From an uncultured Syntrophaceae bacterium (GTDB lineage: Bacteria > Desulfobacterota > Syntrophia > Syntrophales > UBA2192): a DNA stretch of 64,000 nucleotides. The position numbers and the translations under genes are program-made. Positions 11,012 through 24,995 of this stretch are shown here, one piece after another (the stretch's first letter is position 1; every line of letters starts with the position of its first letter). The stretch lies in assembly GCA_964628025.1 (NCBI GenBank), contig CAZVLL010000005.1:667-64666 (forward strand), in the 5' to 3' direction. Below the pieces are notes generated by a model. The model was not told where the DNA came from, searched no databases, and worked only from the letters and a program-made list of their open reading frames with translations.

Positions 11012-11025
11012 AAGGAGACTCTTCC

Positions 11026-11571
11026 ATGTCAAAGATCAAGATCGCCACTGACTGGCTGGCCGGCTGCGCCGGATGCCACATGTCCCTTCTGGACATTGAC
11101 GACCGCATCCTCCCGCTGCTGGAGTTGGTGGAATTTACATCAAGCCCGGTGACGGACCTGAAGCACCCGCCGAAAGAAGGCGTGACCGTGGGAATCCTAG
11201 AGGGCGCCATCTGCAATTCGCACAACATCGAGGTGGCCAAACAGATGCGCGAACGCTGCCAGATCCTCATCGCCATCGGCGACTGCGCCACCTTTGGCGG
11301 AGTCCCGGCTATGCGCAACCTCTGCGGCACGCAGGAAGCCCTGAAGCGCGCGTACCTGGAAGCGGAAAGCAATGTGGGCGGCCTGATCCCCGACTCCCCG
11401 GAACTCGGGATACCCCTCGACGAGGTCGTCGGCATCGACAAGGTGGTGAAGGTCGATCTGTTCATCCCCGGCTGCCCCCCGAGCGCCGATGCGCTGTTCT
11501 ATGCGCTCTCGGAACTGCTCGCCGGGCGTACGCCCATCGTTCTGCCGCCCCAATATTTCAAGTACGACTAG
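11026..11571 (+). CDS. [NiFe]-hydrogenase small subunit, cytoplasmic group-3 type
   Basis: ATG at 11026 follows AAAGGAGAC. WLAGCAGCHMS...IGDCATFGG...FIPGCPP are the proximal-cluster Cys motifs of short, signal-peptide-less group-3 small subunits. Confidence 0.8.
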   Translation: MSKIKIATDWLAGCAGCHMSLLDIDDRILPLLELVEFTSSPVTDLKHPPKEGVTVGILEGAICNSHNIEVAKQMRERCQILIAIGDCATFGGVPAMRNLCGTQEALKRAYLEAESNVGGLIPDSPELGIPLDEVVGIDKVVKVDLFIPGCPPSADALFYALSELLAGRTPIVLPPQYFKYD

Positions 11572-11583
11572 AGGAGGACAGCC

Positions 11584-13014
11584 ATGAGCGCTCGCAAGAT
11601 AACCATCGAACCCGTGACGAGAATCGAAGGCCACGGGCGGGTCACGATTCATCTGAACGAACAGGGGGATGTCGATCAGACCTTCTTCCATGTGGACGAG
11701 TTCCGCGGTCTGGAGAAATTTTCCGAGGGGCGCCCCTATCTCGAAATGCCCCAGATCACCCAGCGCATCTGCGGCATCTGCCCCGTCAGCCACCACCTGG
11801 CAGCCGCCAAGGCCTGCGACGGCGTGGCACGCGTGGAGCCCACCCGGCCGGCAACGCTTTTGCGCGAGCTGATCCACATGGGCCAGTTCATCCAGTCCCA
11901 CGGGATGCATTTCTTCCACCTGGCCGCGCCGGATCTTCTCCTGGGCTTTGACGCCGACCCGGCGACACGCAACGTCTTCGGAATCATCAAGGCCAACCCG
12001 GAGCTGGCCGTCAAGGCCGTGCACCTTCGCCGTTTCGGACAGCAGATCATTTCGCGGCTCGGGGGCGGCAAACGCGTCCATCCCAATCTCTGCGTCCCCG
12101 GCGGGGTCAACGCCCCTCTCACCTCTGAGGACCGCGACGCCATCGCCGCCGAGCTCGACGGCATGACCGAGATCGGAAAGGTCGCACTCAGCATCGCGCG
12201 GGGCTGGCTGGAGTCCAACCGGGAGCTCGCCGATACCTTTGCCGCGTTCCCGTCCAACTACATGGGGCTCGTCGACGAGGAAGGGGGCCTGCAGCTTTAC
12301 GACGGAGAGATCCGCATCAAAGACGCCGAGGGGAAATACCTCGCCCAGTTCAGGACGGATGCCTACCTGTCCCACATCGCCGAACACGTGGAGCCCTGGT
12401 CATTCCTCAAGCACCCCTACTACCGCAAGCAGGGATTCCCGCAGGGCTTCTACCGCGTCGGCCCGCTGGGGCGGATGAACGTGATCGACAAGATCGGCAC
12501 ACCTCTGGCCAACGAGGAGTTCAAGCAATTCAGGACGCTCAACGGCGGCAGGCCCGTCGAAGGGTCTCTTTACTACCACTACGCCCGGATGATCGAGCTG
12601 CTCTACAGCCTCGAGCGCGTCGGCCAGCTGCTGGACGACCCGGATATCCTCTCCAGGGATGTCCGCAATTATCCGAAGCTGCAGCTTCCCGGACAGGGAG
12701 TCGGCGTGATTGAAGCGCCCCGGGGGACCCTGATCCACGACTACAGCACCGATGAAAACGGCATTCTGACGAGGGTGAACCTCATCGTGGCCACGGGCAA
12801 CAACAACTGGGCCATGCACACGGCGTCGGGCTCCGTGGCAAAGGCCTTCGTAAAGGGCAACTCGCTCACGGAAGGCATGCTCAACCGCGTCGAGGCGGCC
12901 ATCCGCTGCTACGATCCGTGCCTGTCCTGCGCGACCCATGCCATAGGCAAGATGCCGCTGGACGTCACGCTCATCGCTGCCGACGGGACCGTGCTGGACC
13001 GCGTCTCACGCTAG
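11584..13014 (+). CDS. [NiFe]-hydrogenase large subunit, group 3
   Basis: 476 aa. It has the N-terminal RICGICPVSH and C-terminal DPCLSCATH Ni-Fe ligand motifs, followed by a C-terminal extension for endopeptidase processing. Confidence 0.9.
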   Translation: MSARKITIEPVTRIEGHGRVTIHLNEQGDVDQTFFHVDEFRGLEKFSEGRPYLEMPQITQRICGICPVSHHLAAAKACDGVARVEPTRPATLLRELIHMGQFIQSHGMHFFHLAAPDLLLGFDADPATRNVFGIIKANPELAVKAVHLRRFGQQIISRLGGGKRVHPNLCVPGGVNAPLTSEDRDAIAAELDGMTEIGKVALSIARGWLESNRELADTFAAFPSNYMGLVDEEGGLQLYDGEIRIKDAEGKYLAQFRTDAYLSHIAEHVEPWSFLKHPYYRKQGFPQGFYRVGPLGRMNVIDKIGTPLANEEFKQFRTLNGGRPVEGSLYYHYARMIELLYSLERVGQLLDDPDILSRDVRNYPKLQLPGQGVGVIEAPRGTLIHDYSTDENGILTRVNLIVATGNNNWAMHTASGSVAKAFVKGNSLTEGMLNRVEAAIRCYDPCLSCATHAIGKMPLDVTLIAADGTVLDRVSR

Positions 13015-13041
13015 ATATACCAAGACGGAATGGCCAATAGA

Positions 13042-13076
13042 AAGCGGGTGAGCGCAACGCGTTCACCCGCTTCTTA
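13042..13076 (+). terminator. hairpin between large subunit and protease genes (possible attenuator/partial terminator)
   Basis: The stem AAGCGGGTGA...TCACCCGCTT is followed by a short T-containing tail. The T-tract is weak. Confidence 0.3.
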
Positions 13077-13101
13077 ATTCTGATATCCCGGAAACACCCC
13101 G

Positions 13102-13587
13102 ATGAAACGGACACTGGTGATAGGGTTCGGAAACGTGGACCGCGCTGACGACGGCGTCGCCTTCCACATCGTCAATGCCTTCCGGCATCAGCTGGGGCAG
13201 GAACCGCTCAAAGAAGACAAAACGGGCCTCGAGGAACTCGGCGCAGCGGTGGACTCCGTCTTCATCGGCCAGCTCGTGCCGGAGATGATCGATCTGCTTG
13301 ACGACTACGAACGGGTCGTTTTCGTGGATGCCCATGTCGATCCGGCCATGAACGATCTTTACTGCGCATCCGTCTCGCCCGACGAGGCCGGCCTGACCTT
13401 CACCCACCACATGAGCCCGGCCACGCTTCTTGCCTTTTTCAAGGCCCTCCATGGCCGCGACATTGATGGCCACCTCGTGTCCATCCGCGGTCGCGATTTC
13501 GACTTCCACCGCAATCTCTCCGCTGACACGATTGCGCTCATAGAGCCGGCTGTCGAACGGATCCTGGAACTCACCTCTGCCTCATGA
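13102..13587 (+). CDS. hydrogenase maturation endopeptidase (HoxW/HybD family)
   Basis: 161 aa. The N-terminal LVIGFGNVDRADDGVAFHIV matches the GxGNxxxxDDGxG family signature. It sits downstream of the large subunit. Confidence 0.8.
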   Translation: MKRTLVIGFGNVDRADDGVAFHIVNAFRHQLGQEPLKEDKTGLEELGAAVDSVFIGQLVPEMIDLLDDYERVVFVDAHVDPAMNDLYCASVSPDEAGLTFTHHMSPATLLAFFKALHGRDIDGHLVSIRGRDFDFHRNLSADTIALIEPAVERILELTSAS

Positions 13588-13805
13588 CTGCGGCCGCCCT
13601 TTATCTTGTGTGAATTTATTACCCATCCGCCCGAGAATTATCTTCTCTCTGTCCCTGCGTTGCTTCCTTGATCTTGATTTTGAACGTCGAGTCGTAGACC
13701 GTGTACGTGCCTGCAGCTCCGGCCATGACAAGCGTGGCCGTCCGTATAGGAAGACAGATAAAGAGGGCAGAGCCGGCAACGGCTCTGCCCTGACAGGCAC
13801 GGTTC

Positions 13806-13844
13806 GACGGGCACTCTTCTCAAGGACGGGCACTCTTCTCAAGG
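13806..13844. repeat. perfect 19-bp tandem duplication (ACGGGCACTCTTCTCAAGG x2) at the 3' end of the Hcp-like gene
   Basis: Units at 13807-13825 and 13826-13844 are identical. The stop codon of the minus-strand gene (13820-13822) lies inside the first unit. Confidence 0.9.
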
Positions 13845-14383
13845 GCAGTCGGCCCGCCCGTCCATATCCATTCGGCGCCCTCGTAGGTGAACGAGACCTG
13901 TTCGTAGGTCTCCAGTTTCACTTGATCCGGAATTCTCACGTTCGGCATGACGGTTTTGATCGAAACGATTCGTGCGCTTGTGAGCTTTACCGTATAATTT
14001 TGAACTTCTGTGCCTCCGCCACCGGCCGCACCGCCTACATTCGGAGCCCAGAATTTAATGGTCGCGTCCGGGATGAGCTCGTTATTGAGCAACATCGTCC
14101 GGAGCACCGGCGACGATTTGTCGATCTCCTTCGTGATGGTGATCTGACCGGAACGCAGGCGCCCCGTCGTCATGCCCGTTGCTGCATCTGTTGCGATCCT
14201 CGACTCCTGATCGAATGCGATAACCCCGATGGAGCCCTCTCTTCCCTTCTGCGTGACACCGCCATAAACAGGCCCCGTTTTCTGCCCTTTGACGTAAAGG
14301 TTTGCCATGATTGCAGCGCTGGCAAGGGCTGTAAACACGAACGTAAATGTGACGACGAACACGACAATGGCTTTTTTCCGCAT
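13820..14383 (-). CDS. Hcp (TssD)-like protein carrying an N-terminal Sec-type signal peptide
   Basis: 187 aa. It is collinear with enterobacterial Hcp/TssD as recalled from memory: REGSIGVIAF, TGMTTGR...ITITKEIDKSSPVL, KFW, YTVKLTSARIVSIKTVMPN, ETYEQVSFTYEGAEWIW. The N-terminus MRKKAIVVFVVTFTFVFTALASAAIMA looks like a signal peptide. Confidence 0.7.
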   Translation of the reverse strand: MRKKAIVVFVVTFTFVFTALASAAIMANLYVKGQKTGPVYGGVTQKGREGSIGVIAFDQESRIATDAATGMTTGRLRSGQITITKEIDKSSPVLRTMLLNNELIPDATIKFWAPNVGGAAGGGGTEVQNYTVKLTSARIVSIKTVMPNVRIPDQVKLETYEQVSFTYEGAEWIWTGGPTALEKSARP

Positions 14384-14490
14384 GCAGGCCTCCTTTGCCT
14401 ATGAATTTGCATGATGAATGCTGTCTTATCCGTTCCGCTTCTTCAGGGTGCCGGTATATCCCTCTCTCTGCAGAAGTGATTGCTTAGGAA

Positions 14491-15747
14491 TCAGAACAGT
14501 CCCTTGAGTTTGTTCAGTGTCCCCTTGATGGTCTCGGTGGCCCCGCCGCTCTCCTCACTGGCCGGTTGATCGCCCCGCTTCTGCCGGCTTTCTTTTGACC
14601 TGCCGCCTTCCTTCATTTCCTCCATTCCAAGCGGGAGCATTCCGGTAGACTTGTTCCTCAGCTTCATGGCCCAGATATAGTCATGAGGCTTGGTCGAGTC
14701 TTTTGGCTTTGGCGGATAGGCGATGTTCAACTCATCGCCGTAGCCGATGAACTGCAGCACTGCCCCTTTTCCGTCCTTGAATATGCCCCTGGGTACCGAA
14801 CAGCTTGTTACCTCGGGCCCCATAACCACCTTCTCCCTGATGAACCTGCTGACATCTGCCGGGGAGAGATAGTTTATCAGGCCGAAGCCTGGATCCTGAA
14901 CCTCGCTGGACGACCAGATGATGGTCTCGCCGGTCTGCTCGTTATGGCCCATCGCCACGGAAAAATAGCCGATTGCCGTGGGGATCTTCTTCCACTGGAA
15001 TGCGATACTTTCTGTCAACCCTCCCTTGACGGCGGTAAATTCAACAGGCGCCATGAAGTCATGCCTCTCGCCAACGGCGAATTTAATATCCGGGGTGTAA
15101 TTGCCGTGGATGAAGTGGCTTCCCAGTAAGGAACTGCTTTTCGGCACACTCTGCTGATCGCTCTTGTTGGGCCATTCCGAATAGGCCCATCCTGTCCTCG
15201 GGGATGGTGGAACCTGACCCGACCCGGAGCGGCCCGCCATGGCCTTTCCGAATTCGATCATGCTCATCTTCTCGGTGTCAAGGACCCTCGGTTGTCCCGG
15301 TCGCACCGTCTCGCTGCACCCCCAGTAAAAGAGCATGCGCACCTTGGGTTTTTCCACCTCTCGGTCTGACCCTTCTCCACTGCGCACCGGCTTTTCACGC
15401 TCGGGAATCAGAAGAGGCAGGGTCTTGCCCATATCCAGGCCGGGAGGGATGTCGTGGGTTGCTTCCGGGGCTGCCGGGGGAGTGCCCGGTGCACTGAGTT
15501 GCAAAAGGAGGCTTCTCTTCGGCCCCATTCCCCCGGGCATCATTTTTCCCATGAGCATTCCCTGCATTCCCGTCATTTCTCCCTGCGGCATGCCTGGAAT
15601 ACTTGTATTTTGTATTGCAACACTCACCCAGTACTGGGTTACAGGTTTTTTTTGCTCTTTCTCCGCCGCGCTCACAAGCGAAACAGAAAAGAAAAGAATC
15701 ATTGCCAGAATCGTGCAGCACGATTTTGAGAGAAGAGTCATGTCCAC
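14491..15747 (-). CDS. secreted hypothetical protein with Met/Gly/Pro-rich N-terminal region
   Basis: 418 aa. It has a signal peptide (ILAMILFFSVSLVSAAEK), then IPGMPQGEMTGMQGMLMGKMMPGGMGP, and a basic/acidic tail. No family was recognised. Confidence 0.6.
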   Translation of the reverse strand: MDMTLLSKSCCTILAMILFFSVSLVSAAEKEQKKPVTQYWVSVAIQNTSIPGMPQGEMTGMQGMLMGKMMPGGMGPKRSLLLQLSAPGTPPAAPEATHDIPPGLDMGKTLPLLIPEREKPVRSGEGSDREVEKPKVRMLFYWGCSETVRPGQPRVLDTEKMSMIEFGKAMAGRSGSGQVPPSPRTGWAYSEWPNKSDQQSVPKSSSLLGSHFIHGNYTPDIKFAVGERHDFMAPVEFTAVKGGLTESIAFQWKKIPTAIGYFSVAMGHNEQTGETIIWSSSEVQDPGFGLINYLSPADVSRFIREKVVMGPEVTSCSVPRGIFKDGKGAVLQFIGYGDELNIAYPPKPKDSTKPHDYIWAMKLRNKSTGMLPLGMEEMKEGGRSKESRQKRGDQPASEESGGATETIKGTLNKLKGLF

Positions 15748-15880
15748 TTCACCTCCATGAGTAGTCTTTGAATCCCTGACCGGTTATGACGCAAAGGATG
15801 CAACCGTGAACTGCGGCAGAACAGGATTTTCTTGTTTCTCGTTTGCTCGTCTGAGACGATGAACACTCTTTTAATCGACC

Positions 15881-15909
15881 TTGACACGCAATTTTCTTTA
15901 TTCTATCTT
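15881..15909 (+). promoter_or_regulatory. candidate sigma70-type promoter of the + strand secreted-protein operon
   Basis: TTGACA (15881-15886), a 17-nt spacer, then TATCTT (15904-15909), within the AT-rich divergent intergenic region. Confidence 0.3.
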
Positions 15910-15973
15910 TACCTCCAAAACAAGACAATAATAATAAAGCATACACGTCAAGTCTGCTGAAAACAGGATTCGC

Positions 15974-17152
15974 ATGAGGCATCCACATTCTCGTTTGCGT
16001 CGGTTTTCTTGTTCAATTTTCATGTTGCTCCTGAGTGTCGGTCTGCTTTCACATCCTGTGTCGACAACAGATGTCAGGGCACAGTGGCCGCCTCCCCAGG
16101 ACGCTGCTGCACAAAATCCCCAGGATGTTCCCTCTCAACCGTATCCATCCGGTGAGACCGTCCCTCCCTCCATGCAGTCTCCCACGCAGTCTCAGTCGCC
16201 GATCCAATCGCCACTGAAACAGCAAAGCCAGAAAAGAGGGCAGTCACAGCAACAACAACAGGGCATGCCTTCCGCACCGGGATACCCGCAGGCTTCCCCC
16301 GGTTATCCGCAAGCGGCCCCGATGCAGGGCCCTCAGCAACCGCAGACGAGCTACCCTCAGGGAGCACAAGGGGGAAGTCAGTGGGGCCAGCAGCAACAGT
16401 CGCCTTACCCCCAGGGACCGGCCCAGGGCGGTCAACAGCAGCAGATGATTTACCCGCAGGGAGCAACTGTGCCGGGGAATGTTCCCATGCAGACCGACGC
16501 CTGGGGTCAACCCGTTCCGACGCAGGGTGGCCAGCAGCAGACGGGCTACCCGCAAGGAGTGCAAGGAGGTCAGTGGGGCCAGCAGCAGCAACAGCCGCCT
16601 TACCCCCAGGGACCGGCCCAGGGCGGTCAACAGCAGCAGATGATTTACCCGCAGGGAGCAACTGTGCCGGGGAATGTTCCCATGCAGACCGACGCCTGGG
16701 GTCAACCCGTTCCGATGCAGGGTGGCCAGGTTCCACAGCCCGGGGTTTATCCGCAAGCACAGCCTGGACAGCCGGGGATGATGCCACAGCCCGCCATGCC
16801 TGCCGCCGCACCCCAGGGCTGCAATGTCCAACTCAGCCAGGACCGTCAGACCGTGATTTTGAAGGACTCTGCGGGTCAGGACAGAGATCACATATCGCTG
16901 GGTGAGGACCGCGTTCAGAAGATTTTCAAATCAAAAGAAGGCAGCTGGTCTTTCGTCGTTTTCAAGGTCAGGCGCGTGGAGCAATTCGGAGCTTTTGCCA
17001 TCGACCTGTCCAGTTGCCAGGCGCAGGACCTCGTCGAGATATCGGCGGTGCCGACAGATGCGGCCTTCGAGGGAGAGGACATTCTCCTGACTTTTTCGGG
17101 AGGGAAGACAACACGGCTCAAGCTCGTGAACAGAGTCATCGTCGAGAAGTAG
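15974..17152 (+). CDS. secreted Q/P/G/Y-rich (prion-like, low-complexity) repeat protein with a globular C-terminal domain
   Basis: 392 aa. A signal-like N-terminus (FMLLLSVGLLSHPVS) is followed by about 240 aa of YPQG/QGGQQQQ-type repeats. An ordinary-composition C-terminal domain begins at CNVQLSQDRQTVILKD. Confidence 0.7.
   Translation: MRHPHSRLRRFSCSIFMLLLSVGLLSHPVSTTDVRAQWPPPQDAAAQNPQDVPSQPYPSGETVPPSMQSPTQSQSPIQSPLKQQSQKRGQSQQQQQGMPSAPGYPQASPGYPQAAPMQGPQQPQTSYPQGAQGGSQWGQQQQSPYPQGPAQGGQQQQMIYPQGATVPGNVPMQTDAWGQPVPTQGGQQQTGYPQGVQGGQWGQQQQQPPYPQGPAQGGQQQQMIYPQGATVPGNVPMQTDAWGQPVPMQGGQVPQPGVYPQAQPGQPGMMPQPAMPAAAPQGCNVQLSQDRQTVILKDSAGQDRDHISLGEDRVQKIFKSKEGSWSFVVFKVRRVEQFGAFAIDLSSCQAQDLVEISAVPTDAAFEGEDILLTFSGGKTTRLKLVNRVIVEK
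16381..16729 (+). repeat. tandem duplication (period ~192-195 bp) inside the Q-rich gene
   Basis: 16402-16520 is identical to 16597-16715 (119 nt). After a single mismatch, identity resumes through GCAGGGTGGCCAG. The block encodes PYPQGPAQGGQQQQMIYPQGATVPGNVPMQTDAWGQPVP twice. Confidence 0.9.
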
Positions 17153-17213
17153 CCGTGATTCGTGATCGGTGGCAATCAAAACGCACAAGCATCGATGGAG
17201 GAGTAACGATTCA

Positions 17214-17972
17214 ATGAAACGCGACAAATGGATTCTTGTACTGCTGTCGATAATGCTTTCCGTTCTGCTCTGCGCCCACGTCTCGATGGCGGCGGGGCTT
17301 TTCGGCGACGATGAGGACGCCGTCGTCGACGATTCCGGGACGAGCAAGAAGCTGAAAAACCTGAAGCGGCAAGCGGGACCCAAGCCCGTCGTTGCCATTT
17401 ATGATTTCAGGAGCACGGTCCCTGACGTCCCCACGGCATCGGCACTGGACATGTTTGTCACAGCCCTGGTGAAATCGGGGGCATTCACCGTCGCAGAGCG
17501 TCAGAGAATACAGGAGGGCGTCTCCAAGGAACGGCAATTCCAGGCATCCGGTGCTGCAACCGGACGGGCCGCCAACACCAAGTTTGCAGGCGCCCAGTAC
17601 ATTTTTGAAGCTGCGGTGACCGAAGGCAATCCCAACGAAAAGCAATCGGAAGGAAACATCAGCGTCGGGGGAATGGAGATGGGGCGCGCCGGGGTTACCG
17701 ATTCGATTGGTCTTGACGTACGGATCATCAGCGCCGAGACGGGCCTGGTGATCGACTCCGTGAATGTTCGCAAGAAAATCGAGGCGGCCCAGGGAGGCGT
17801 TTCCGGTATCGGAAAACTGGCCCAGAGTGTCGCGGGCCTTTACAAGAAATCCGTGCCGCTCAATCCCGATGCGAATGTGAAAATTGCCAGGAAGGAAAGC
17901 GTCGACAAGGCCCTGAGATCCTGCATCGAAGCGGCTGTTCTGGAACTGGCGAAGAGGCTTTCTGAGGATTGA
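17214..17972 (+). CDS. CsgG/HfaB-family outer-membrane secretion channel-like protein
   Basis: ATG at 17214 follows GGAGG. It is collinear with E. coli CsgG as recalled: VAIYDFRS..., ALDMFVTALVKSGAFTVAERQ, AQYIFEAAVTEGN, IGLDVRIISAETGLVIDSVNV. A signal peptide is present. Confidence 0.7.
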   Translation: MKRDKWILVLLSIMLSVLLCAHVSMAAGLFGDDEDAVVDDSGTSKKLKNLKRQAGPKPVVAIYDFRSTVPDVPTASALDMFVTALVKSGAFTVAERQRIQEGVSKERQFQASGAATGRAANTKFAGAQYIFEAAVTEGNPNEKQSEGNISVGGMEMGRAGVTDSIGLDVRIISAETGLVIDSVNVRKKIEAAQGGVSGIGKLAQSVAGLYKKSVPLNPDANVKIARKESVDKALRSCIEAAVLELAKRLSED

Positions 17973-17974
17973 GC

Positions 17975-18607
17975 ATGAAACACAAAAGGGCGAATCCGTT
18001 CCTCATCCTTTTTTTCATGGTTGCTGCTGGTGTGATGTGTCCGGATGCGGCGCTTTGTCATGAGAAAGACATCATCCCTGCTTATGTGATGTATGCCGAC
18101 GATTATCCGCTTCATGTCAGTTTTTTCTTTGAGGGTGGAAGCCCGATCGAGCGAATGACAGGCAGAAGGGAAAAGTGGTACGCCCTGTATGAATCCTCTC
18201 TACGTCCCGGGTATTATCGGATCATGTTAAAGCACGGCGGCGAGCCGTCCAGTGTGAGGCTGTACGTGCTGGAAAGCGAACCATCGGAGCGGTTCAATGC
18301 CAGGCTGGAGCTTCCCCTGGAACGGGTTACGTTTTATGACAATTCTCGTCGCAACTATCACCTGTATCAGTCGAATATCGGCATTGCAGGTGATTTCAAA
18401 AGGACGAACATCCATTTCATATTGGAGTGGACGCCGCCTCCGGGAAGACATGAACCGATCCAGGCATCGTTTCAGATCATAACTCTATCCCATACGGAGG
18501 ACAACAACCGGCAATCTTCGTCATTTTTTTCCGATAAGTGGACGGTGCGCAGTCCCCTGGAAAGCCAGAACCGCCGGGGACCGATCATATTGCCCAACTC
18601 GAAATAG
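17975..18607 (+). CDS. secreted hypothetical protein
   Basis: ATG at 17975 lies 2 nt after the csgG-like stop. Signal peptide is MKHKRANPFLILFFMVAAGVMCPDAALC. No family was recognised. Confidence 0.55.
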   Translation: MKHKRANPFLILFFMVAAGVMCPDAALCHEKDIIPAYVMYADDYPLHVSFFFEGGSPIERMTGRREKWYALYESSLRPGYYRIMLKHGGEPSSVRLYVLESEPSERFNARLELPLERVTFYDNSRRNYHLYQSNIGIAGDFKRTNIHFILEWTPPPGRHEPIQASFQIITLSHTEDNNRQSSSFFSDKWTVRSPLESQNRRGPIILPNSK

Positions 18608-18684
18608 CCCGGATAGTCAATTCATCTCCATCAGCGGGGCGGGAGATTCTGCCGGATGTTCCTAAGCGATGGTCCGAGTCGACC

Positions 18685-19194
18685 ATGAACACCGATAACG
18701 GGTGTAAGAGAGGTAATCCATGCCACGGGTGCCCTGCGCCGTGTTGCCAGGTTCAGCTCCATCACTACCAGGCCCCTGCCACCTTGAAGGATCTTGACAT
18801 GGCAAGATACCGGCTCCTCTATCCAAAAACGGAATTCGTCTTTTGCGATACGGGGGACTGGTATCTGCTCCACTGGAAAACATGCTCCTTTTTTCTACGA
18901 GAAACATGTGCTTGTTCCGTGCACAGTTCTTCCCAGAAACCACAGATATGTGACTCTTTCAATCAAGACGATTGCTGGTTTAAACAGAATTTTATCGAAG
19001 CCCCCGAAAAGACCGTCATCCGGATTGATCTCCTGCGTTTCGAGCGTTTGCTGCAAGAGGTAAGACAGACGGAATCGGGGGGAAATGTTCTATTGCCGCC
19101 TTTCGAAGAATCACGCCGCATCGTCTCAGGAATTCCAGTTTCACCTGCCTTTTCCCCCGTCTACCCTGAGGCGGAAGCGGCCCTCGATGCATGA
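18685..19194 (+). CDS. cytoplasmic Cys-cluster protein (YkgJ/CxxCxxCC-like zinc- or iron-chelating domain)
   Basis: The internal ATG at 18685 (MNTDNGCKRGNPCHGCPAPCCQ...) is preferred over the track start at 18538. It is Cys-rich (CHGCPAPCC, CSFFLRETCACS, CDSFNQDDC). Confidence 0.45.
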   Translation: MNTDNGCKRGNPCHGCPAPCCQVQLHHYQAPATLKDLDMARYRLLYPKTEFVFCDTGDWYLLHWKTCSFFLRETCACSVHSSSQKPQICDSFNQDDCWFKQNFIEAPEKTVIRIDLLRFERLLQEVRQTESGGNVLLPPFEESRRIVSGIPVSPAFSPVYPEAEAALDA

Positions 19195-19664
19195 ATCAAC
19201 AAAGGAGGAAGATCATGGCTCTCGTTCGAAGAAGTGTTCACTATACCGTATGGATCGCAGGGTTTCTCGTATCCATGGTGTTTAGCTGGTTTGGATGGTC
19301 TGTCCCCCCATTTGCCGAGGCAGCCAGGATAAAAGCCCCGCGCGTATTTACCTCAGACCAGGCCCTGCAACAGAGCATCCCTTTCACGAAGCAGTTGAAT
19401 GAAGAGACGTCGCGGAGGTTGCTGGCGGATGCCGCCACTGCGCCCAAACCGGACACCTATCAAGGGCAGGTTCCCGTATCCCAGCCGAGACAAGCCTTCA
19501 AGCTGGAGGACAAAAAGGAACTGAAACCATCCCGGTTGCCTGATAAGGAAACGTCTCAACCCAAGCAAGCGTTGAAACTGGAATCCGTCGCCCCCTCAAG
19601 CATGCCGTCGAAAAAGGCGCCACAGACCACACAGCCCCTGCAGACCATGACGAAGACGGATTAG
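19191..19664 (+). CDS. membrane-anchored or secreted hypothetical protein with an internal SQP[RK]QA[FL]KLE repeat
   Basis: 157 aa. Its start overlaps the previous stop (ATGA). It has one hydrophobic segment (VWIAGFLVSMVFSWFGW) and a K/P/Q/S-rich tail. Confidence 0.5.
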   Translation: MNQQRRKIMALVRRSVHYTVWIAGFLVSMVFSWFGWSVPPFAEAARIKAPRVFTSDQALQQSIPFTKQLNEETSRRLLADAATAPKPDTYQGQVPVSQPRQAFKLEDKKELKPSRLPDKETSQPKQALKLESVAPSSMPSKKAPQTTQPLQTMTKTD

Positions 19665-19750
19665 GCACGTGCCGGATCCGGAGATCTTCCGCCCATGATG
19701 ACAAGGAAATGCATGGATCTCTCTCGTGAATGGGAATCAGAGGTGTGGGA

Positions 19751-20515
19751 ATGAATCAACCCCAGGATCCACGCATCTATCTTCTCGGTTCCGGTATCTT
19801 CAGTTTCTACGACTTGACCCTGTACACCCAGCATTTGCTTCAAGAGTGCAAATCCGTTTTTTACCTGCACGATCTTCCGTCCCTTGAGCGGCATATCACC
19901 CGACTCAAACCGGATGCGGTCAACCTGATGCCGCTCTACTATATCGACGGCAGGAACAGGACAACGATTTATTCGGATATCACAAAACACATCCTCCAGA
20001 GTGCCCGGGAAAATCCACCGGTGGCCTTTTTGATGCATGGCCATCCACTGGTCTTTTCCTCCATTTCTCAACTGATTATCGAGGAAGGAGAGAAATCGGG
20101 CATACCTGTTGAAGTGGTTCCAGCTGTTTCTTCCCTGGACCGAATGTTTGTGGATCTGAATCTGGATATTGCTGACAGGGGAATTCAGATTTTTCACACA
20201 TCCATGGCCATTGCGAATCATCTGACATTGAATCCCCATGTCGACAGCCTCTTTTTGCAGATCGGGTCCGTCGGCGACAACACGGCAAGGCGCAACGAAA
20301 CAGTCTCTCTTGAAGGTGTCCGCTCCTTCAGTCAGTATCTGCTCGATTTCTATCCGGGCCATCATGATGTCATCGTCATAGAATGTGCGATTGAACTGGG
20401 GTTTGAGAGCAGACTCACAGAGATAACGATCGACCGTCTGCCGGAGGCGGCCCTGGCGTTCAATTACAATGCCAGTGCATACGTACCTGCTCTTTCGAAG
20501 TCATTTTCACCATAA
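19751..20515 (+). CDS. borosin-type (OphMA-like) peptide alpha-N-methyltransferase, TP_methylase superfamily, stand-alone (split) form
   Basis: It is collinear with the fungal OphMA methyltransferase domain as recalled from memory. Matching segments are IYLLGSGI / IVGTGI, SVFY / KVFY, LYYIDGRNRTTIY / YYDNGKSRLNTY, HGHPLVF / YGHPGVF, VPAVSSLDRMFVDLNLD / LPGVSAEDCLFADLCID, LFLQIGSVG / LVLFQVGCVG and AYVPA / FYIPP. Confidence 0.6.
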   Translation: MNQPQDPRIYLLGSGIFSFYDLTLYTQHLLQECKSVFYLHDLPSLERHITRLKPDAVNLMPLYYIDGRNRTTIYSDITKHILQSARENPPVAFLMHGHPLVFSSISQLIIEEGEKSGIPVEVVPAVSSLDRMFVDLNLDIADRGIQIFHTSMAIANHLTLNPHVDSLFLQIGSVGDNTARRNETVSLEGVRSFSQYLLDFYPGHHDVIVIECAIELGFESRLTEITIDRLPEAALAFNYNASAYVPALSKSFSP

Positions 20516-20648
20516 AAGCGACAAGAATGGCCGTACCGAATATAAAATCGTTTTTCAATCACTGCCAACACAAAGACGAACAGCAGACATGGAAAAATTG
20601 GCAGTGATCTACACGATTATTTTTTATCAGAAACAGGGAGGGAATGTG

Positions 20649-22076
20649 ATGGCTCTGAACACGAGACGATTACAGACAGTACTGATGGGAATGGCGATGC
20701 TTCTTTTTATTTGCGTGGGCATGATGCCGTCGCCTGCCGAATCAGCGGAGACCGGAACGTTTCCCGGCGGGCCTGACAATGCTGCAACTCTCCTTGCGCA
20801 ATTGCAGACCTCACCCGTGAGGCCGGTTGTCCCGTCTGTTCCCAAAACGGCCATCCAACAAAAGGCGAATCTGACGTGTCCGTCCGGGGCGCCGATTTCC
20901 TCCTCCACCGCGGGGTGCCTTAAGGTCGTCTGGTCCAAGAAGATCTGCAATGAAGACGGCAGGCAGTCGGTTCAGTTTTCACCGAACAATATGGACGTTG
21001 ACTGGCAGGGAGGGCGGATATTCGCCGGGTCGTACGAAACGAACAGGGATTATGGAACCGCCCTTCAACGATTGCGCGCGTTTCGTTTCTCCGATGGAGC
21101 ACAGATATGGGAAAAACGCAATACAAGCAAAACCATAATTTATTTCGGGGCCCTGGCCTATACCAATGGACGGATCTTCAACAGCTGGACCGGGCTCGAC
21201 GCCTTCAACGCCAATGACGGCTCACTCTTGTGGCAAGCCCCCCCATTCATCGGGGGCGGCGGCTACAGCAATGCCTGGATAATCGCCAAGAATCAGAATC
21301 TTTACGCGAATCCGACCATTTTCGATAAATCTACTGGCCAATCCCTCCAATATCTCCAGGTCCTCGATCAGGCAACCGGTACGGAACGCTTGCGATATAA
21401 AACGGGCTGGTTATATAGCCAGCCACTGATCATCGGCAATGCTGCCTATGCCAACATGGGGATTAGCGGCATGGTCTTCCTGGATCTGGGGAAGCCTGCA
21501 TTGATGTGGAGTATCGCGCCTTCCGGTCTGTCCAAGACCTCTAAAGGTTTCTACAACAATCAGGTTTACCTGGGAGTCGGCAGTGAAATCTTTGCCGTGG
21601 ACAGCGCCACCGGGAAGATTACGCAACGATATGCCCTGCCAAAATGTGTAACATACACGAACAATCCCGGGCAACAATACTGCTTCAACTACGCGAAAGG
21701 TGTCCTCTCGCCATTCACCTTATCCATCGACCGGGCTGTTTTCATTAACAGCAGCGGTGATCTTCAGGCCCTCAATCTCCAGACCGGATCCCTTCTCTGG
21801 AGTACCTTAGCCGGTGGTTCCACGACAATCTATGAGAATATCGCTCCAGCGGTTGTCAACGGGGTCGTCATCACATCTTCCTGGAAAACTACCTACAATG
21901 CGAGTAATCTCAGTGTAAACACCTATGGCGTGAATGTCTATGATGTCACCAGCGGTCAAGAGCTGGCCAGCGTGCCCACCGGCACTTTGATGGTTCTTGA
22001 TATTAAAGTGGCCCCCGACGGTTCCGCCATCGTGGTTCGAACACCGGAAGATCTCATATTCCTGGCAACACGTTAA
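20649..22076 (+). CDS. secreted PQQ-like (BamB-like) beta-propeller repeat protein
   Basis: ATG at 20649 follows GGGAGGG. It has a signal peptide (LMGMAMLLFICVGMMPSPAESA) and repeated ...DG(S/A)xxW... blades (SDGAQIWEK, NDGSLLWQAP, TGSLLWST). Confidence 0.7.
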   Translation: MALNTRRLQTVLMGMAMLLFICVGMMPSPAESAETGTFPGGPDNAATLLAQLQTSPVRPVVPSVPKTAIQQKANLTCPSGAPISSSTAGCLKVVWSKKICNEDGRQSVQFSPNNMDVDWQGGRIFAGSYETNRDYGTALQRLRAFRFSDGAQIWEKRNTSKTIIYFGALAYTNGRIFNSWTGLDAFNANDGSLLWQAPPFIGGGGYSNAWIIAKNQNLYANPTIFDKSTGQSLQYLQVLDQATGTERLRYKTGWLYSQPLIIGNAAYANMGISGMVFLDLGKPALMWSIAPSGLSKTSKGFYNNQVYLGVGSEIFAVDSATGKITQRYALPKCVTYTNNPGQQYCFNYAKGVLSPFTLSIDRAVFINSSGDLQALNLQTGSLLWSTLAGGSTTIYENIAPAVVNGVVITSSWKTTYNASNLSVNTYGVNVYDVTSGQELASVPTGTLMVLDIKVAPDGSAIVVRTPEDLIFLATR

Positions 22077-22107
22077 CCTTTCGCGCGAAAAAGCAATTCC
22101 ATCAATA

Positions 22108-22140
22108 AAGGCAGGGTCGATTCGATCCTGCCTTTTCTTT
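22108..22140. terminator. intrinsic terminator between convergent genes
   Basis: The stem AAGGCAGG...CCTGCCTT is followed by TTTCTTTT. Confidence 0.6.
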
Positions 22141-22141
22141 T

Positions 22142-23017
22142 CTATTCACGTTCCTCTTTCACGGGGATCCGCGACTCGCAGGGAACTCCTGTCTGGCAAA
22201 GTCCGCAGGCATATCCCTGGAATCCATAGTGCTCGACGATATACTGCTTGCAGGTCTCGTGAACGTGCTTCGAGCAGGTGATCTTGTCGTGCCCTTTTTC
22301 CGAAAGCGCTCCCACGGGGCAGCGTTCCGCGCACTTTTTGCAGATTCCCTGGCTGAACCAGAGGCAGTAGTCCTGGTGCCCCTTGTACGGCCTCGGTGTT
22401 GCGGGGACCTCCGTCTCGGCGACAACGGACCCCACCCGCATAGCCTTTCCCCGGGAAGTGATGAGCCCGTCGGAAAGCCCGAAGGTCCCCAGCCCCGAGA
22501 CAAAGGCCGCGTGGCGCTCGGACCACTTGGAGGCGAAGACGAACTTATCCGACGCCATCCGTGACCACTCGGGCAGGAGCACCGGTGCTGTTGCCGGGAT
22601 GCCCGCCTTCCTCAGTTCCTCCAGCATGTACCTTCGGAGCTTCTCGTTCACCGTCTCGCCGAAAAACCGCGCCCTGGCCCAGCTTTCCGGCGGGTACGTC
22701 TTTTCCTTCCGTGTCTCCGCTTTCGTTTTTCTCATCTGGGGAAGAACCCAGCTGATCACGGTGAGTCTCGACGCCGAAACCCGGCTGCCCGGATAGGCCT
22801 TCTCGAAGGCCTCCTCCGGGGTCCAGTGGAAAGGACCCACGTGCTCCCGGAAGGATTCCCAGTAGGCGTCATCGCCCCGGGAAAAACCGACGAGCGGGTC
22901 GTCCCAGGCCCTGTCATTCGCTGCGTTCCCGAGGGTGTTCTCCGGTGAGGTGTTGACCCACTCGCGTATAATACCGGTCACCCATTCTGATGAGTCTTTT
23001 GGGTTCTTGGTTGTCAT
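22142..23017 (-). CDS. 4Fe-4S protein of the epoxyqueuosine reductase/reductive dehalogenase superfamily
   Basis: 291 aa. SERHAAFVSGLGTFGLS...RVGSVV is followed by two ferredoxin-type Cys clusters (CKKCAERCPVGA, CGLCQTGVPC). Confidence 0.55.
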   Translation of the reverse strand: MTTKNPKDSSEWVTGIIREWVNTSPENTLGNAANDRAWDDPLVGFSRGDDAYWESFREHVGPFHWTPEEAFEKAYPGSRVSASRLTVISWVLPQMRKTKAETRKEKTYPPESWARARFFGETVNEKLRRYMLEELRKAGIPATAPVLLPEWSRMASDKFVFASKWSERHAAFVSGLGTFGLSDGLITSRGKAMRVGSVVAETEVPATPRPYKGHQDYCLWFSQGICKKCAERCPVGALSEKGHDKITCSKHVHETCKQYIVEHYGFQGYACGLCQTGVPCESRIPVKEERE

Positions 23018-23122
23018 GGAGGTCTCCTTCAGTATTCGAGGGCCGCGGGTGGCAAGTAGAGAAAAATAAGTCCCTGCCGCCGAGATGACATCCCTTCCCT
23101 GCGACCTCTCACCTGTTGCCTT

Positions 23123-24193
23123 TCATGGTAATGGCGTTTCCGTGTATGCCACGTTGGCTTCTGATGACTTGTAGAGCGGCAGTTTCTTCCCTTGCTTCAC
23201 GTCCTCGACCCAGTTGGGGTTCAACAGCATCGACTTGGCCGAAAGCGCGATGTCGGCATCTTTCAGGGCGTCCTCGCAGGCGGCCCGGTCGTGGATCTGC
23301 CCGCAGACCATCAGCGGCAGCTTCGTCGCTTCCCGCGTAAGACCTGCCATGGTCTTTTCCGTTCCAAACGCCTTATCGGAATAGCGGTAGGTGGAAACGG
23401 AGACGGCATCGACGGGTTCCATAGATAGGAGTCGGATCATCTCCTGCCACTCCTCCCTGCTCTCGAAAAGGGAAACCTCCATGTCGGCGATGCCCCAGTT
23501 GGAGATGCGGAAGGTGATGAGGCGATCTTCCGGAACGACGGGACGAACGGCCCGGATGATATCGCGGGCAAAGCGGAACCGGTTTTCCACGGACCCACCG
23601 TATTCATCGGTCCTGTGGTTGGATGTCGCCGACAGAAATTGGGTGATGAGGTATCCGTGGGCGCCGTGAACTTCAACACCGTCGAAGCCCGCGGCCATGG
23701 CCCCCTTTGCCGTCTCGACGAACCCGTTGATGACGTGCTCGATGTCGAAACGGCTCATCTCGTCGGGAACAGGGTACGGTTTCCCCGTGAGGGGGTTTTT
23801 CTGTTTCGGGGCCAAGGCGCTTGGGGCAAGAATGCGACCGGCCGGATTCACCTCCGGCCAGGCAGCCCTCCCGCAGTGGAACAACTGCGCGATGGCGACG
23901 GCACCGGCATCCTGTATGGCCTTGACGACCGGTTTCCAGGCATCGAGCTGGCGCTGCGTGAGAAGCCTCCCCTGCCGGGGATAGCCCTGGGCGCTCTCAT
24001 AGTCCGTAACGATACCCTCCGTAAAGACGATGGCGGAGCCGTTCGCTGCCCGCCTGACGAGGAACTCCAGCACATCCTTTCGCGGGACACTGTCGCCCGG
24101 AGAGGACATGCGGGTCATGGCGGCCACACCGAGCCGGTTTTTGAGGCACCGGCTCTTCAACTGAAAGGCGGAAAAAACGACGTCGGGGATCAT
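23123..24193 (-). CDS. NADH:flavin oxidoreductase, Old Yellow Enzyme family
   Basis: 356 aa. FDGVEVHGAHGYLITQFLSATSNHRTDEYGGSVENRFRF is the canonical OYE active-site region. Confidence 0.85.
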   Translation of the reverse strand: MIPDVVFSAFQLKSRCLKNRLGVAAMTRMSSPGDSVPRKDVLEFLVRRAANGSAIVFTEGIVTDYESAQGYPRQGRLLTQRQLDAWKPVVKAIQDAGAVAIAQLFHCGRAAWPEVNPAGRILAPSALAPKQKNPLTGKPYPVPDEMSRFDIEHVINGFVETAKGAMAAGFDGVEVHGAHGYLITQFLSATSNHRTDEYGGSVENRFRFARDIIRAVRPVVPEDRLITFRISNWGIADMEVSLFESREEWQEMIRLLSMEPVDAVSVSTYRYSDKAFGTEKTMAGLTREATKLPLMVCGQIHDRAACEDALKDADIALSAKSMLLNPNWVEDVKQGKKLPLYKSSEANVAYTETPLP

Positions 24194-24416
24194 CGTGCAC
24201 CTCCACGCGGTTCTTGAATTGACGATAAATATATCAGGATCGCTCCCTTCGAGTCCACGGTTTTAGGATAACGGGCGATCGAATCCGGGAGAGGTGTGAC
24301 GCGATTGCGATTTAAGATTTGACACCGCTTCCGTTTGCGTGCATGAATTCACCTGACTCTTGCCCCTTCCAAGGGAAGAAATGCTGTGAAATTTTCAATT
24401 CCGGAGGTATGTCTCC

Positions 24417-24995
24417 ATGACAAGATCGATCAAGGGAACCAGGACAGAAAAAAATCTCCTTGCGGCCTTTTCAGGCGAGGCCCAGGCAAGGAACCGCTAT
24501 ACCTATTTCGCCGGTGCCGCGAAGAAGGAAGGCTTCGAGCAGATCGCTGCCATCTTCCTGGAGACGGCCGAAAACGAGAAAGAACATGCAAAAGTGTTTT
24601 TCAAGTACCTGGAGGGTGGCGACGTGGAGATCACGGCAGCCTACCCGGCCGGTGTGATCGGCGACACGAAGGCCAACCTCGAAGCTGCCGCCCGAGGCGA
24701 ATACCACGAATGGTCGACCCTGTATGCCGATTTCGAGAGAGGGGCCCGGGAGGAGGGTTTCCCGGAGATCGCCGGTTCCTTCCGCGAGATCGCCGAAGTG
24801 GAACAGATCCACGAAGCGCGGTATCGGAAACTGCTGGCCAACATCGTGAACGGAGAAGTCTTCCGGAAGAAATCGCCCGTCAAGTGGCACTGCCGAAACT
24901 GCGGCTACGTCCATGAAGGCGCCGAGGCACCCGAAACGTGCCCCGCCTGCAATCACCCGAAGGCCTATTACGAAATCCTTGCGGAGAATTACTAA
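24417..24995 (+). CDS. rbr: rubrerythrin
   Basis: 192 aa. TEKNLLAAFSGEAQARNRY...ENEKEHA...EVEQIHEARY is the diiron four-helix-bundle part. A C-terminal rubredoxin domain carries CRNCGY...CPACNHP. Confidence 0.9.
   Translation: MTRSIKGTRTEKNLLAAFSGEAQARNRYTYFAGAAKKEGFEQIAAIFLETAENEKEHAKVFFKYLEGGDVEITAAYPAGVIGDTKANLEAAARGEYHEWSTLYADFERGAREEGFPEIAGSFREIAEVEQIHEARYRKLLANIVNGEVFRKKSPVKWHCRNCGYVHEGAEAPETCPACNHPKAYYEILAENY

Follow-up and report, generated by a model that had tools for sequence, protein, structure and literature searches.

To our knowledge, no ribosomal route to backbone N-methylated peptides is known apart from the borosins; the modification is prized for the protease resistance and membrane permeability that it brings. 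They are typed 0 to XI by the arrangement of the enzyme, the borosin-binding domain (BBD) and the core, and the class is already known as architecturally diverse. Here we analyse an 8.3-kb region of a 64,000-nucleotide stretch of contig CAZVLL010000005.1 (assembly GCA_964628025.1) from an uncultured Syntrophaceae bacterium; this whole stretch is referred to as the window. The region carries nine genes, g1 to g9, and two neighbours among them, g7 and g8, encode a putative precursor and a stand-alone borosin-type N-methyltransferase (NMT). Judging from sequence and structural models, the new element here is predicted to be a BBD-less, signal-peptide-led, multi-core split borosin.

The system most similar in its enzyme is SonM/SonA of Shewanella oneidensis (type IV, PDB 7LTC), in which the precursor SonA, cytoplasmic and 70 residues long, combines a five-helix BBD with one core that receives two methylations. 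Like SonM, g8 is a stand-alone NMT of about 260 amino acids (aa) with the same modelled fold, and in both cases the precursor is a separate adjacent gene, whereas the g7 side has a general secretory (Sec) signal and, as a rule, many tandem cores but no BBD that could be detected, and the g8 family has His where SonM has Tyr93 of the YGHP motif. In precursor logic the closest system is RceM/RceA of Rhodospirillum centenum (type V), likewise a separate NMT with a multi-core precursor, the ten near-identical DVIELSSGGEL repeats of RceA being methylated once each (10.1101/2021.12.24.474128). There the BBD is fused to the enzyme, while g8 is without an extra domain, and the short leader of RceA, for which no signal peptide is reported, differs from the long signal-peptide leader of the g7 family, as do the repeats themselves (QPxQAMKLK versus DVIELSSGGEL). 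Type V has been reported from Rhodospirillales alone, with nine members, and g7-g8 shares with it the multiple cores but neither the fused BBD nor the short leader. The BBD-less split borosins of Legionellales, compared here by description only, resemble g8 in that their NMT acts without a recognisable BBD; they have conserved precursor motifs of their own, and the partial descriptions available mention neither a signal peptide nor QPxQA. Within the portions of this literature that were accessible, the described borosin architectures rely on a BBD or on the Legionellales-specific motifs and precursor export signals are not described; the words "Geobacter" and "signal peptide" are likewise absent from the accessible portions of the borosin mining papers. 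None of the strings QPQQAMK, QPKQAMK, QPQQANAM, QPQQARRA, HGHPLVF and NYNASAY turned up in the supplements to Lee et al. 2024, of which the coverage was not exhaustive, and a further comparison of the four core strings among them with 8 million full texts, subscription papers excepted, likewise gave no match. A signal peptide followed by many tandem cores is a feature of fungal KEX2-processed repeat proteins and ustiloxin-type precursors, which offer an analogy only, being eukaryotic, modified in the secretory pathway and served by different enzymes.

The g7-g8 pair and the gene in front of it, g6, form what we call module C, with the following features in window coordinates:

18538-19194, + strand: open reading frame (ORF) of g6, a cytoplasmic Cys-cluster protein, likely start 18685 (PF03692, 22.5 bits)
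19191 (ORF) or 19215 (preferred start) to 19664, + strand: g7, predicted borosin-type precursor, by its adjacency upstream of the methyltransferase
19215-19322, + strand: g7 putative signal peptide MALVRR...WSVPPFAEA (residues 1-36 of 149 aa, counted from the preferred start), by the family pattern
19482-19508, + strand: g7 putative core unit 1, QPRQAFKLE, matching the family consensus
19557-19583, + strand: g7 putative core unit 2, QPKQALKLE, by translation and family consensus
19632-19661, + strand: g7 putative core unit 3, QPLQTMTKTD, degenerate and C-terminal, by translation and family consensus
19730-20515, + strand: g8, stand-alone SonM-like borosin alpha-N-methyltransferase of predicted activity, by profile, fold and catalytic residues

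The product of g8 had been noted as an OphMA-like N-methyltransferase in a preliminary description of this DNA, and this identification is strengthened by profile comparison, modelled fold and catalytic residues, by which g8 is a stand-alone borosin alpha-N-methyltransferase of the SonM/OphMA type with a predicted activity. It matches Pfam TP_methylase (1e-17) and, over its full length, SonM (phmmer, 5e-19; about 23% identity), with weaker matches to MroMA, dbOphMA and OphMA. When the profile of its 27-member family was compared with the PDB, SonM (4e-34), dbOphM (6e-31), MroMA (7e-30) and OphMA (2e-28) were recovered, and the best non-borosin methylase followed at 4e-5, about 75-95 bits below the solved borosin NMTs. 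The AlphaFold2 (AF2) model of g8 (predicted local distance difference test, pLDDT, 87) found borosin NMTs only among its top 50 Foldseek matches, with template modelling (TM) scores of 0.81-0.89, the SonM comparison giving 0.86 in either normalisation. Residues Y70, R77 and Y81 of g8 align with Y58, R67 and Y71 of SonM, which stabilise the deprotonated amide and dominate kcat in that enzyme (PMC8429565); across the 27 family sequences the Arg and the second Tyr are invariant and the first Tyr is conserved in at least 90%. Enzymes of the g8 family measure 254-261 aa and align end to end with the SonM catalytic domain, which leaves no space for a fused BBD. At the position of the DCLFAD motif, the family has S-L-D-R-M-F-V-D-L and SonM itself E-A-C-L-W-A-D. 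The close family is small, as about 45 clusters at 90% identity reduce to a handful at 50%, and just 10 representatives reach 1e-30 or better.

Homologues of g8 are labelled "YabN with tetrapyrrole methylase and pyrophosphatase domain" by JGI, and the NCBIfam YabN model matches at 4e-14, which would suit an ordinary tetrapyrrole or YabN-type methylase in a locus without special biology. The YabN match, however, reaches 52 bits against a cut-off of 525 and the MazG domain is absent; the cobalamin and siroheme methylase models (CobA, CysG, CbiL and others) all give at most 25 bits against cut-offs of 93-400, tetrapyrrole pathway genes are absent nearby, and the best tetrapyrrole methylase lies on the far side of the score gap given above. 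The YabN or tetrapyrrole methylase identity was rejected on the curated cut-offs and this gap in the PDB scores, and we find it scarcely credible.

The partner of the enzyme is g7. A g7 homologue stands directly upstream of the methyltransferase gene in all 14 independent loci with upstream DNA (relatives of 45-77% identity), which were drawn from Geobacter sp. OR-1, an Arenicellales MAG (metagenome-assembled genome), other NCBI assemblies, and soil and sediment metagenomes, and the pairing spans Desulfobacterota, Acidobacteriota and Gammaproteobacteria. At two further loci, cut short by contig ends (L009, of a Terriglobia MAG, and L027), what remains upstream is the tail of a g7-like gene, and these are not counted in the 14; L028, with 430 nt upstream only, shows no clear precursor. 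In most loci the precursor and methyltransferase genes are 4-17 nt apart or overlap. A frameshift or an assembly error breaks the methyltransferase of L010 (6135-6723), from the Arenicellales MAG, into two ORFs that overlap, and the upstream precursor is intact.

The precursors begin with a conserved M-A-x-x-[KR]-[KR], followed by about 18-20 hydrophobic residues (peak 15-residue Kyte-Doolittle mean 1.9-2.5), P-P-x-W-A and a small or charged residue. A signal peptidase I site is likely past W-A, because the P-P-x-W-A pattern fits the -3/-1 rule. A twin-arginine translocation (Tat) signal was rejected, the twin Arg not being conserved (KK, KS, RK and KN occur). Many members then share a leader helix of modest conservation, roughly (F/I)-x-A-L-N-x-K-(V/I)-D-x-L ... 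F-S-x-x-E-I, within a leader alignment that is weakly conserved as a whole, and the C-terminus is hypervariable and usually repetitive. From 55 units of 12 precursors, selected by the QP.Q pattern, we derived the core consensus Q-P-[QKR]-Q-A(87%)-[MRNL]-[KRA]-[LAIM]-[KLE], a typical unit being Q-P-x-Q-A-M-K-L-K; a precursor holds 2-11 copies at periods of 8-27 residues, and the homologue of Geobacter sp. OR-1 ends in QPKQAMTKTD. We read g7 as built on the logic of a precursor of RiPPs, peptides that ribosomes make and that are modified after translation, because a conserved leader and variable tandem cores are encoded beside a tailoring enzyme.

It is also conceivable that g7 and g8 are coupled but not as substrate and enzyme, g7 being a co-regulated protein, secreted or periplasmic, or else an immunity or regulatory factor, and g8 acting on a different protein or a small molecule. 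The mismatch in topology between an exported g7 and a cytoplasmic g8 would fit such an arrangement, as would the lack of a recognisable BBD and the 733 putative borosin NMTs counted in the literature without an identified precursor. The strict adjacency in all 14 loci across the three groups named, often with translational coupling, and the conserved-leader, variable-repeat build typical of RiPP precursors speak against it, and ORF clustering of the loci found no other conserved gene able to supply a substrate; we therefore consider this arrangement unlikely.

The composition of the cores raises the question of which amide is modified. Each of the 55 QP.Q-selected units contains two Gln, the next residue is Ala in 87% and Lys follows in most, so g8 might modify g7 on a side chain, either at the Gln side-chain amide of the Q-P-x-Q cores (giving N5-methyl-Gln) or at Lys. 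Borosin chemistry methylates a deprotonated amide N-H, which we infer Gln could also offer, and the His that replaces Tyr in YGHP indicates active-site surroundings different from those of the characterised borosin NMTs. All characterised members of the enzyme clade, on the other hand, act on backbone amides, the three residues by which the backbone is positioned (Tyr/Arg/Tyr) are kept, and Q-P-x-Q is not kept in all variant cores of the loci L029, L106 and L107. We regard side-chain methylation as improbable, yet as a real alternative given that Gln is nearly invariant in the cores.

We propose instead that g7-g8, joined by g6 in one lineage, is a minimal split-borosin-like cassette, BBD-less and multi-core, in which cytoplasmic methylation of the precursor is followed by Sec export, and we hold this proposal with cautious confidence, a little above an even chance. 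In such a scheme g7 would be made with its Sec signal peptide, short leader helix and C-terminal cores; the cytoplasmic, S-adenosylmethionine (SAM)-dependent and BBD-less g8 would dock on the N-terminal leader and/or the signal region of g7 and methylate backbone amide nitrogens within each core. Sec would export the modified g7, signal peptidase I would cut past P-P-x-W-A, and the N-methylated product, intact or cleaved at its many Lys, would act in the periplasm or extracellularly. No dedicated protease or transporter is conserved among the clustered loci of the family. That the signal or leader is recognised in place of a BBD, with Sec export dispensing with a dedicated protease or transporter, would constitute an undescribed borosin architecture, a further step that we advance tentatively and somewhat short of even. 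We know of no described bacterial RiPP-like pathway that joins cytoplasmic tailoring to a classical Sec signal peptide.

Several points weigh against this proposal. The g7-g8 pair is observed, and the methylation of g7 is what we infer from sequence and model. In place of the diagnostic YGHP, one of the two motifs in the BorosinMT detection rule, the family has an invariant H-G-H-P, with H103 of g8 at the position of SonM Y93. The SonM variant Y93F shows kcat about halved, chiefly with a higher Km for SAM (PMC8429565). His for Tyr need not abolish function, because this variant retains about half of its activity. No BBD is detectable in the precursor, as neither phmmer with g7 nor a profile of 13 leaders found a match at E<=10 among all PDB chains, SonA included, and a BBD in g7 was rejected at the sequence level by these searches. 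The cores are polar and Q/K-rich, where characterised borosins have aliphatic or acidic ones; g7 of the window has just three rather degenerate cores, and the homologues in L106 (7586-7957) and L107 (7569-7928) have Q-rich tails in which clean repeats are absent. The homologue in L029 (1890-2234) carries two copies of a different core, D-x-RMGKFLGD-x-PAG, and all three of these proteins retain the conserved signal peptide and leader helix despite their differing cores. The topology is awkward, with an export signal on the partner of a cytoplasmic enzyme. Moreover, borosin NMTs are slow, kcat of SonM being 0.52 per min (PMC8429565). The enzyme would need to retain the precursor, because export is normally fast by comparison; alternatively, the pairing of enzyme and substrate or the assumption of backbone chemistry is wrong.

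If the proposal is true, a two-gene cassette with a signal-peptide leader and tandem polar cores would extend both the rules by which borosin NMTs recognise their precursors and the range of substrates that they accept, and it would pose the question of timing between cytoplasmic tailoring and Sec export. It would also mean that backbone-N-methylated repeat proteins or peptides exist outside the cytoplasm in soil and sediment Geobacter, Acidobacteriota and Gammaproteobacteria, and would point to environmental bacteria using N-methylated peptides beyond the cytoplasm. The idea is directly testable, because the cassette is carried by Geobacter sp. OR-1, which we take to be a cultured strain.

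The third gene of module C, g6, is YkgJ/UPF0153-like, its match to PF03692 (CxxCxxCC) falling slightly below the 23-bit cut-off. In Geobacter sp. OR-1 (L001) and in L021 the precursor gene is directly preceded by a g6 homologue of 55-56% identity, and none was found in the other family loci by tblastn of 100 loci or by ORF clustering of 13; g6 is a putative lineage-specific accessory of module C, confined to the three closest loci. Its start is most likely at 18685, with the CxxCPxPCC motif kept in homologues, and we prefer this start because the homologues of Geobacter sp. OR-1 and L021 include the motif in the protein. The public gene call (131 aa; L002, 2114-2509) begins 3' of the C-x-x-C-P-x-P-C-C motif. 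The CxxCxxCC domain also occurs in the FliB lysine methylase; g6 as a FliB-type enzyme, a possible lead, was set aside, with no NCBIfam match at E<=0.1, no PDB relative and no paper joining both terms. For g7 we favour the second Met, at 19215, as the start, with the support of homologues.

More distant relatives of the enzyme (25-35% identity; L011-L020) come from Actinomycetes and from one MAG each of Verrucomicrobiae and Vicinamibacterales. Their loci encode, in this order, an NHLP/LigA-like leader peptide of about 90 aa ending ...RRVALEEWGVDVRRFRAFLMDNG..., the methyltransferase, a PhyH dioxygenase and TfuA (in L011, 9617-9898, 9986-10717, 10698-11435 and 11451-12098), an arrangement that looks like a separate type of RiPP-like cluster. 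From the NHLP/LigA-like leader and the PhyH dioxygenase and TfuA neighbours we conclude that the wider enzyme clade is RiPP-associated. The leader in the distant Actinomycete subfamily gave weak LigA and NHLP matches only, and a SonA-like nature of this leader was rejected.

Module C is embedded among six other genes, and the preliminary description had speculatively read all nine as a single secretion or fibre-assembly system. The other features of the region are as follows:

13764-13791, - strand: intrinsic terminator after the g2-g1 pair, 12-bp stem with 9 GC pairs and a T-rich tail
13820-14383, - strand: g1, Hcp/TssD with Sec signal, module A (T6SS_HCP 1e-21; TIGR03344 95.2 bits)
14491-15747, - strand: g2, Met-rich secreted protein, module A (no Pfam or NCBIfam match)
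15748-15973, no strand: divergent intergenic region of 226 nt with promoter-like hexamers, which are consensus matches only
15974-17152, + strand: g3, secreted Q/P-rich protein, module B, with a conserved C-terminal domain of about 105 aa
17169 or 17214 to 17972, + strand: g4, CsgG/HfaB-family protein, non-lipidated, module B (CsgG 1e-18)
17975-18607, + strand: g5, secreted protein of about 200 aa, module B, the conserved partner of the CsgG-like gene
20649 (likely) to 22076, + strand: g9, secreted PQQ_2/BamB-like beta-propeller, module D (PF13360 2e-11)
22107-22135, + strand: intrinsic terminator closing the + strand array, 13-bp stem and T-run (free energy -20.4 kcal/mol, z = -6.5)

The layout described earlier holds up in detail. 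All nine ORFs are present as described, with the 2-nt gap between g4 and g5 (g4 ends at 17972, g5 starts at 17975), the ATGA overlap of g6 and g7 (g6 ends at 19194, the g7 ORF runs from 19191) and the terminator after the + strand array. The divergent region has hexamers resembling sigma-70 promoters on either strand, TTGACA-17-TATCTT at 15881-15909 on the + strand (10 of 12 consensus matches) and, again as a consensus match only, a pair at 15928-15900 on the - strand. Read from the sequence, signal-like N-terminal segments are present in seven of the nine products (g1, g2, g3, g4, g5, g7 and g9) and absent from g6 and g8. The domain assignments of g1, g4, g6, g8 and g9 were upheld in Pfam and NCBIfam profile searches, in which g2, g3, g5 and g7 had no match.

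What does not survive is the unity of the system. The 100 loci around relatives of the methyltransferase were gathered by looking up contigs in public data and by scanning 185,579 species genomes as well as metagenomes, and when the nine products were compared with them by tblastn, only g6, g7 and g8 matched beyond the window's own organism (L002); g1, g2, g3, g4, g5 and g9 had zero matches outside it. All-against-all ORF clustering of 13 distinct close-family loci recovered the methyltransferase in 13 of 13, the upstream precursor in 12 of the 12 with upstream DNA and the Cys-cluster protein in 3, and no fourth genuine shared family, the remaining common clusters being shadow ORFs within these genes. 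In L021 the g6-g7-g8 triad is preceded by a HicAB-like pair and followed by an unrelated secreted protein, with no CsgG there, and the g3-g4-g5 order repeats in L101, L102 and L103 without g1, g2 and g6 to g9. From this synteny, namely the tblastn matches, the ORF clusters, the L101-L103 cassette and the orphan Hcp homologues described below, we conclude that the 8.3-kb region is not one machine but a mosaic, low in GC, of independent modules directed to the envelope, comprising module A (g2-g1), module B (g3-g4-g5), module C (g6-g7-g8) and module D (g9). The guanine-cytosine (GC) content of the nine genes is 0.50-0.60, lowest in g8 (0.495), against 0.61-0.63 in the flanks (11584-13014 and 22142-24193), which would fit one or several insertions gained by horizontal transfer.

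In the earlier model g3 or a peptide from a neighbour would be N-methylated and exported through the CsgG-like channel, with the Hcp ring and the beta-propeller as accessory factors. Its attractions are real, since g3 to g9 run along one strand to a single strong terminator and their junctions are short or overlap, seven of the nine products are directed to the envelope, the g4 model resembles the CsgG barrel and the g3-g4 linkage holds across genomes. Every other locus of the methyltransferase family, however, is without g1 to g5 and g9, the CsgG cassette occurs without a methyltransferase, signal-peptide Hcp genes are orphans elsewhere, and it is g7 rather than g3 that is conserved as the partner of the enzyme. 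One conserved nine-gene system was therefore rejected on the tblastn and ORF-clustering results, the genes being unlinked in relatives, and this model is in our view very improbable. The suggestion that the substrate is a Q-rich protein or a neighbour-derived peptide agrees with the data as to the neighbour, which would be g7, then noted only as an anchored protein; the Q-rich g3 was rejected as substrate, since it shows no co-occurrence with the enzyme family, with which g7 co-occurs always. Likewise, a Q-rich substrate for the CsgG-like channel remains reasonable for the evolutionarily linked g3 and g4 alone, but nothing connects methylation with CsgG export, and nothing connects either the Hcp protein or the beta-propeller with methylation. 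Against a strict separation of the modules stands the possibility that g3 to g9 are co-transcribed, because they share a strand, short gaps and one terminator, and some functional cross-talk may exist in this organism. A tidy same-strand "operon" of secreted proteins can thus be an accretion of unrelated modules, which calls for caution in guilt-by-association.

In module B, as proposed earlier, g4 is CsgG-like, with a PF03783 CsgG domain (67.7 bits against a 20.8 cut-off, 1e-18) and an AF2 model of moderate quality (pLDDT 76), for which the nearest structure is CsgG in its membrane-bound form (4UV3/6L7C, TM 0.61) and which shows three strands of about 20 residues (129-151, 154-173 and 179-197). 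It thereby shares with curli CsgG the domain and a modelled fold with long hairpins, at about 20% identity to E. coli CsgG; it scores 23 bits against a cut-off of 505 with the PRK15184 equivalog model and E 0.005 with NCBIfam HfaB. More than 160 relatives share at least about 47% identity. No conserved lipobox Cys follows the signal in g4 or 10 homologues, in contrast to CsgG, which the lipobox marks as an outer-membrane lipoprotein, and in most of these homologues the predicted cut falls just before an acidic segment, e.g., A|DEED; g4 and g5 as lipoproteins were rejected on the absence of a conserved lipobox.

The closest g4 homologues on long contigs all stand in the same three-gene order (L101, from a Syntrophorhabdaceae MAG, 6253-8349; L102, 5872-8355; L103, 5621-8301; in the window, 15974-18607, + strand). 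In these three loci the CsgG-like gene is directly preceded by a gene for a Q/P-rich protein, the last 105 or so residues of which are 40-47% identical to residues 283-388 of g3, and directly followed, with an overlap, by a gene of about 200 aa whose product is 29-35% identical to g5. In Pfam and NCBIfam, g3 and g5 match no CsgA, CsgB, CsgE, CsgF or Hfa family, and the cassette is not linked to csgA/B/E/F. A Q-rich secreted protein, a CsgG-like protein and a partner are nevertheless reminiscent of the amyloid subunit, secretin and partner of curli or Hfa-like arrangements, and the holdfast anchor operon HfaA-HfaB-HfaD of Caulobacter is presumably a parallel. The non-lipidated CsgG-like barrel predicted for g4 probably handles the Q/P-rich g3, and g3-g4-g5 may be a curli- or holdfast-like export module without described partners, one that may merit separate study.

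In module A, g1 exceeds the cut-off of TIGR03344 (58.9 bits) as well as matching PF05638, and a 25-residue Sec-type signal, MRKKAIVVFVVTFTFVFTALASA, comes before MANLYVKG, where Hcp canonically begins. Such a signal recurs in at least 14 homologues, 176-191 aa long (P0179-P0184, P0199-P0205, P0249, P0264, P0266 and P0276; L104, 5001-5564; L105, 5001-5549), whereas signal-less relatives of 160-168 aa begin at the canonical M-A-L. No type VI secretion system (T6SS) genes were found around g1, which is the part of the window that was screened for them, or around its relatives at L104 and L105. By its sequence, g1 is thus a Sec-exported Hcp-fold protein of a recurrent orphan subfamily, which shares the Hcp domain with T6SS Hcp/TssD, differs from it by the cleavable-looking signal and the orphan context, has no obvious role in a T6SS tube, and may merit separate study. 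In L105 a small Peptidase_S26 gene directly follows the signal-peptide Hcp gene. Its neighbour g2 has no homologue in any collected locus and no family match; past its signal peptide runs a Met-rich stretch, MPQGEMTGMQGMLMGKMMPGGMGP, reminiscent of periplasmic Cu(I)-binding Met motifs. Module D, g9, carries PF13360 PQQ_2 and is absent from all related loci (tblastn, 100 loci), standing at this position in this genome only. It has its own ribosome-binding site behind a 133-nt gap, and its start is most likely at 20649, with AGGGAGGG as the ribosome-binding site and the public gene call in agreement. Both g2 and g9 are unlinked secreted proteins.

A 234-aa ORF lies antisense inside g8 (19661-20365, - strand), and in eight loci it is seen again on the strand facing the methyltransferase gene; it is no gene but the shadow of a coding sequence that is conserved. 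On the left the region is flanked by an operon for an NAD-reducing Hox-type [NiFe] hydrogenase with its maturation protease (9227-13587, + strand), and on the right (22142-24995) by genes for a QueG-like 4Fe-4S protein, an OYE-family flavin oxidoreductase and rubrerythrin, all ordinary anaerobe housekeeping with no relation to the locus.

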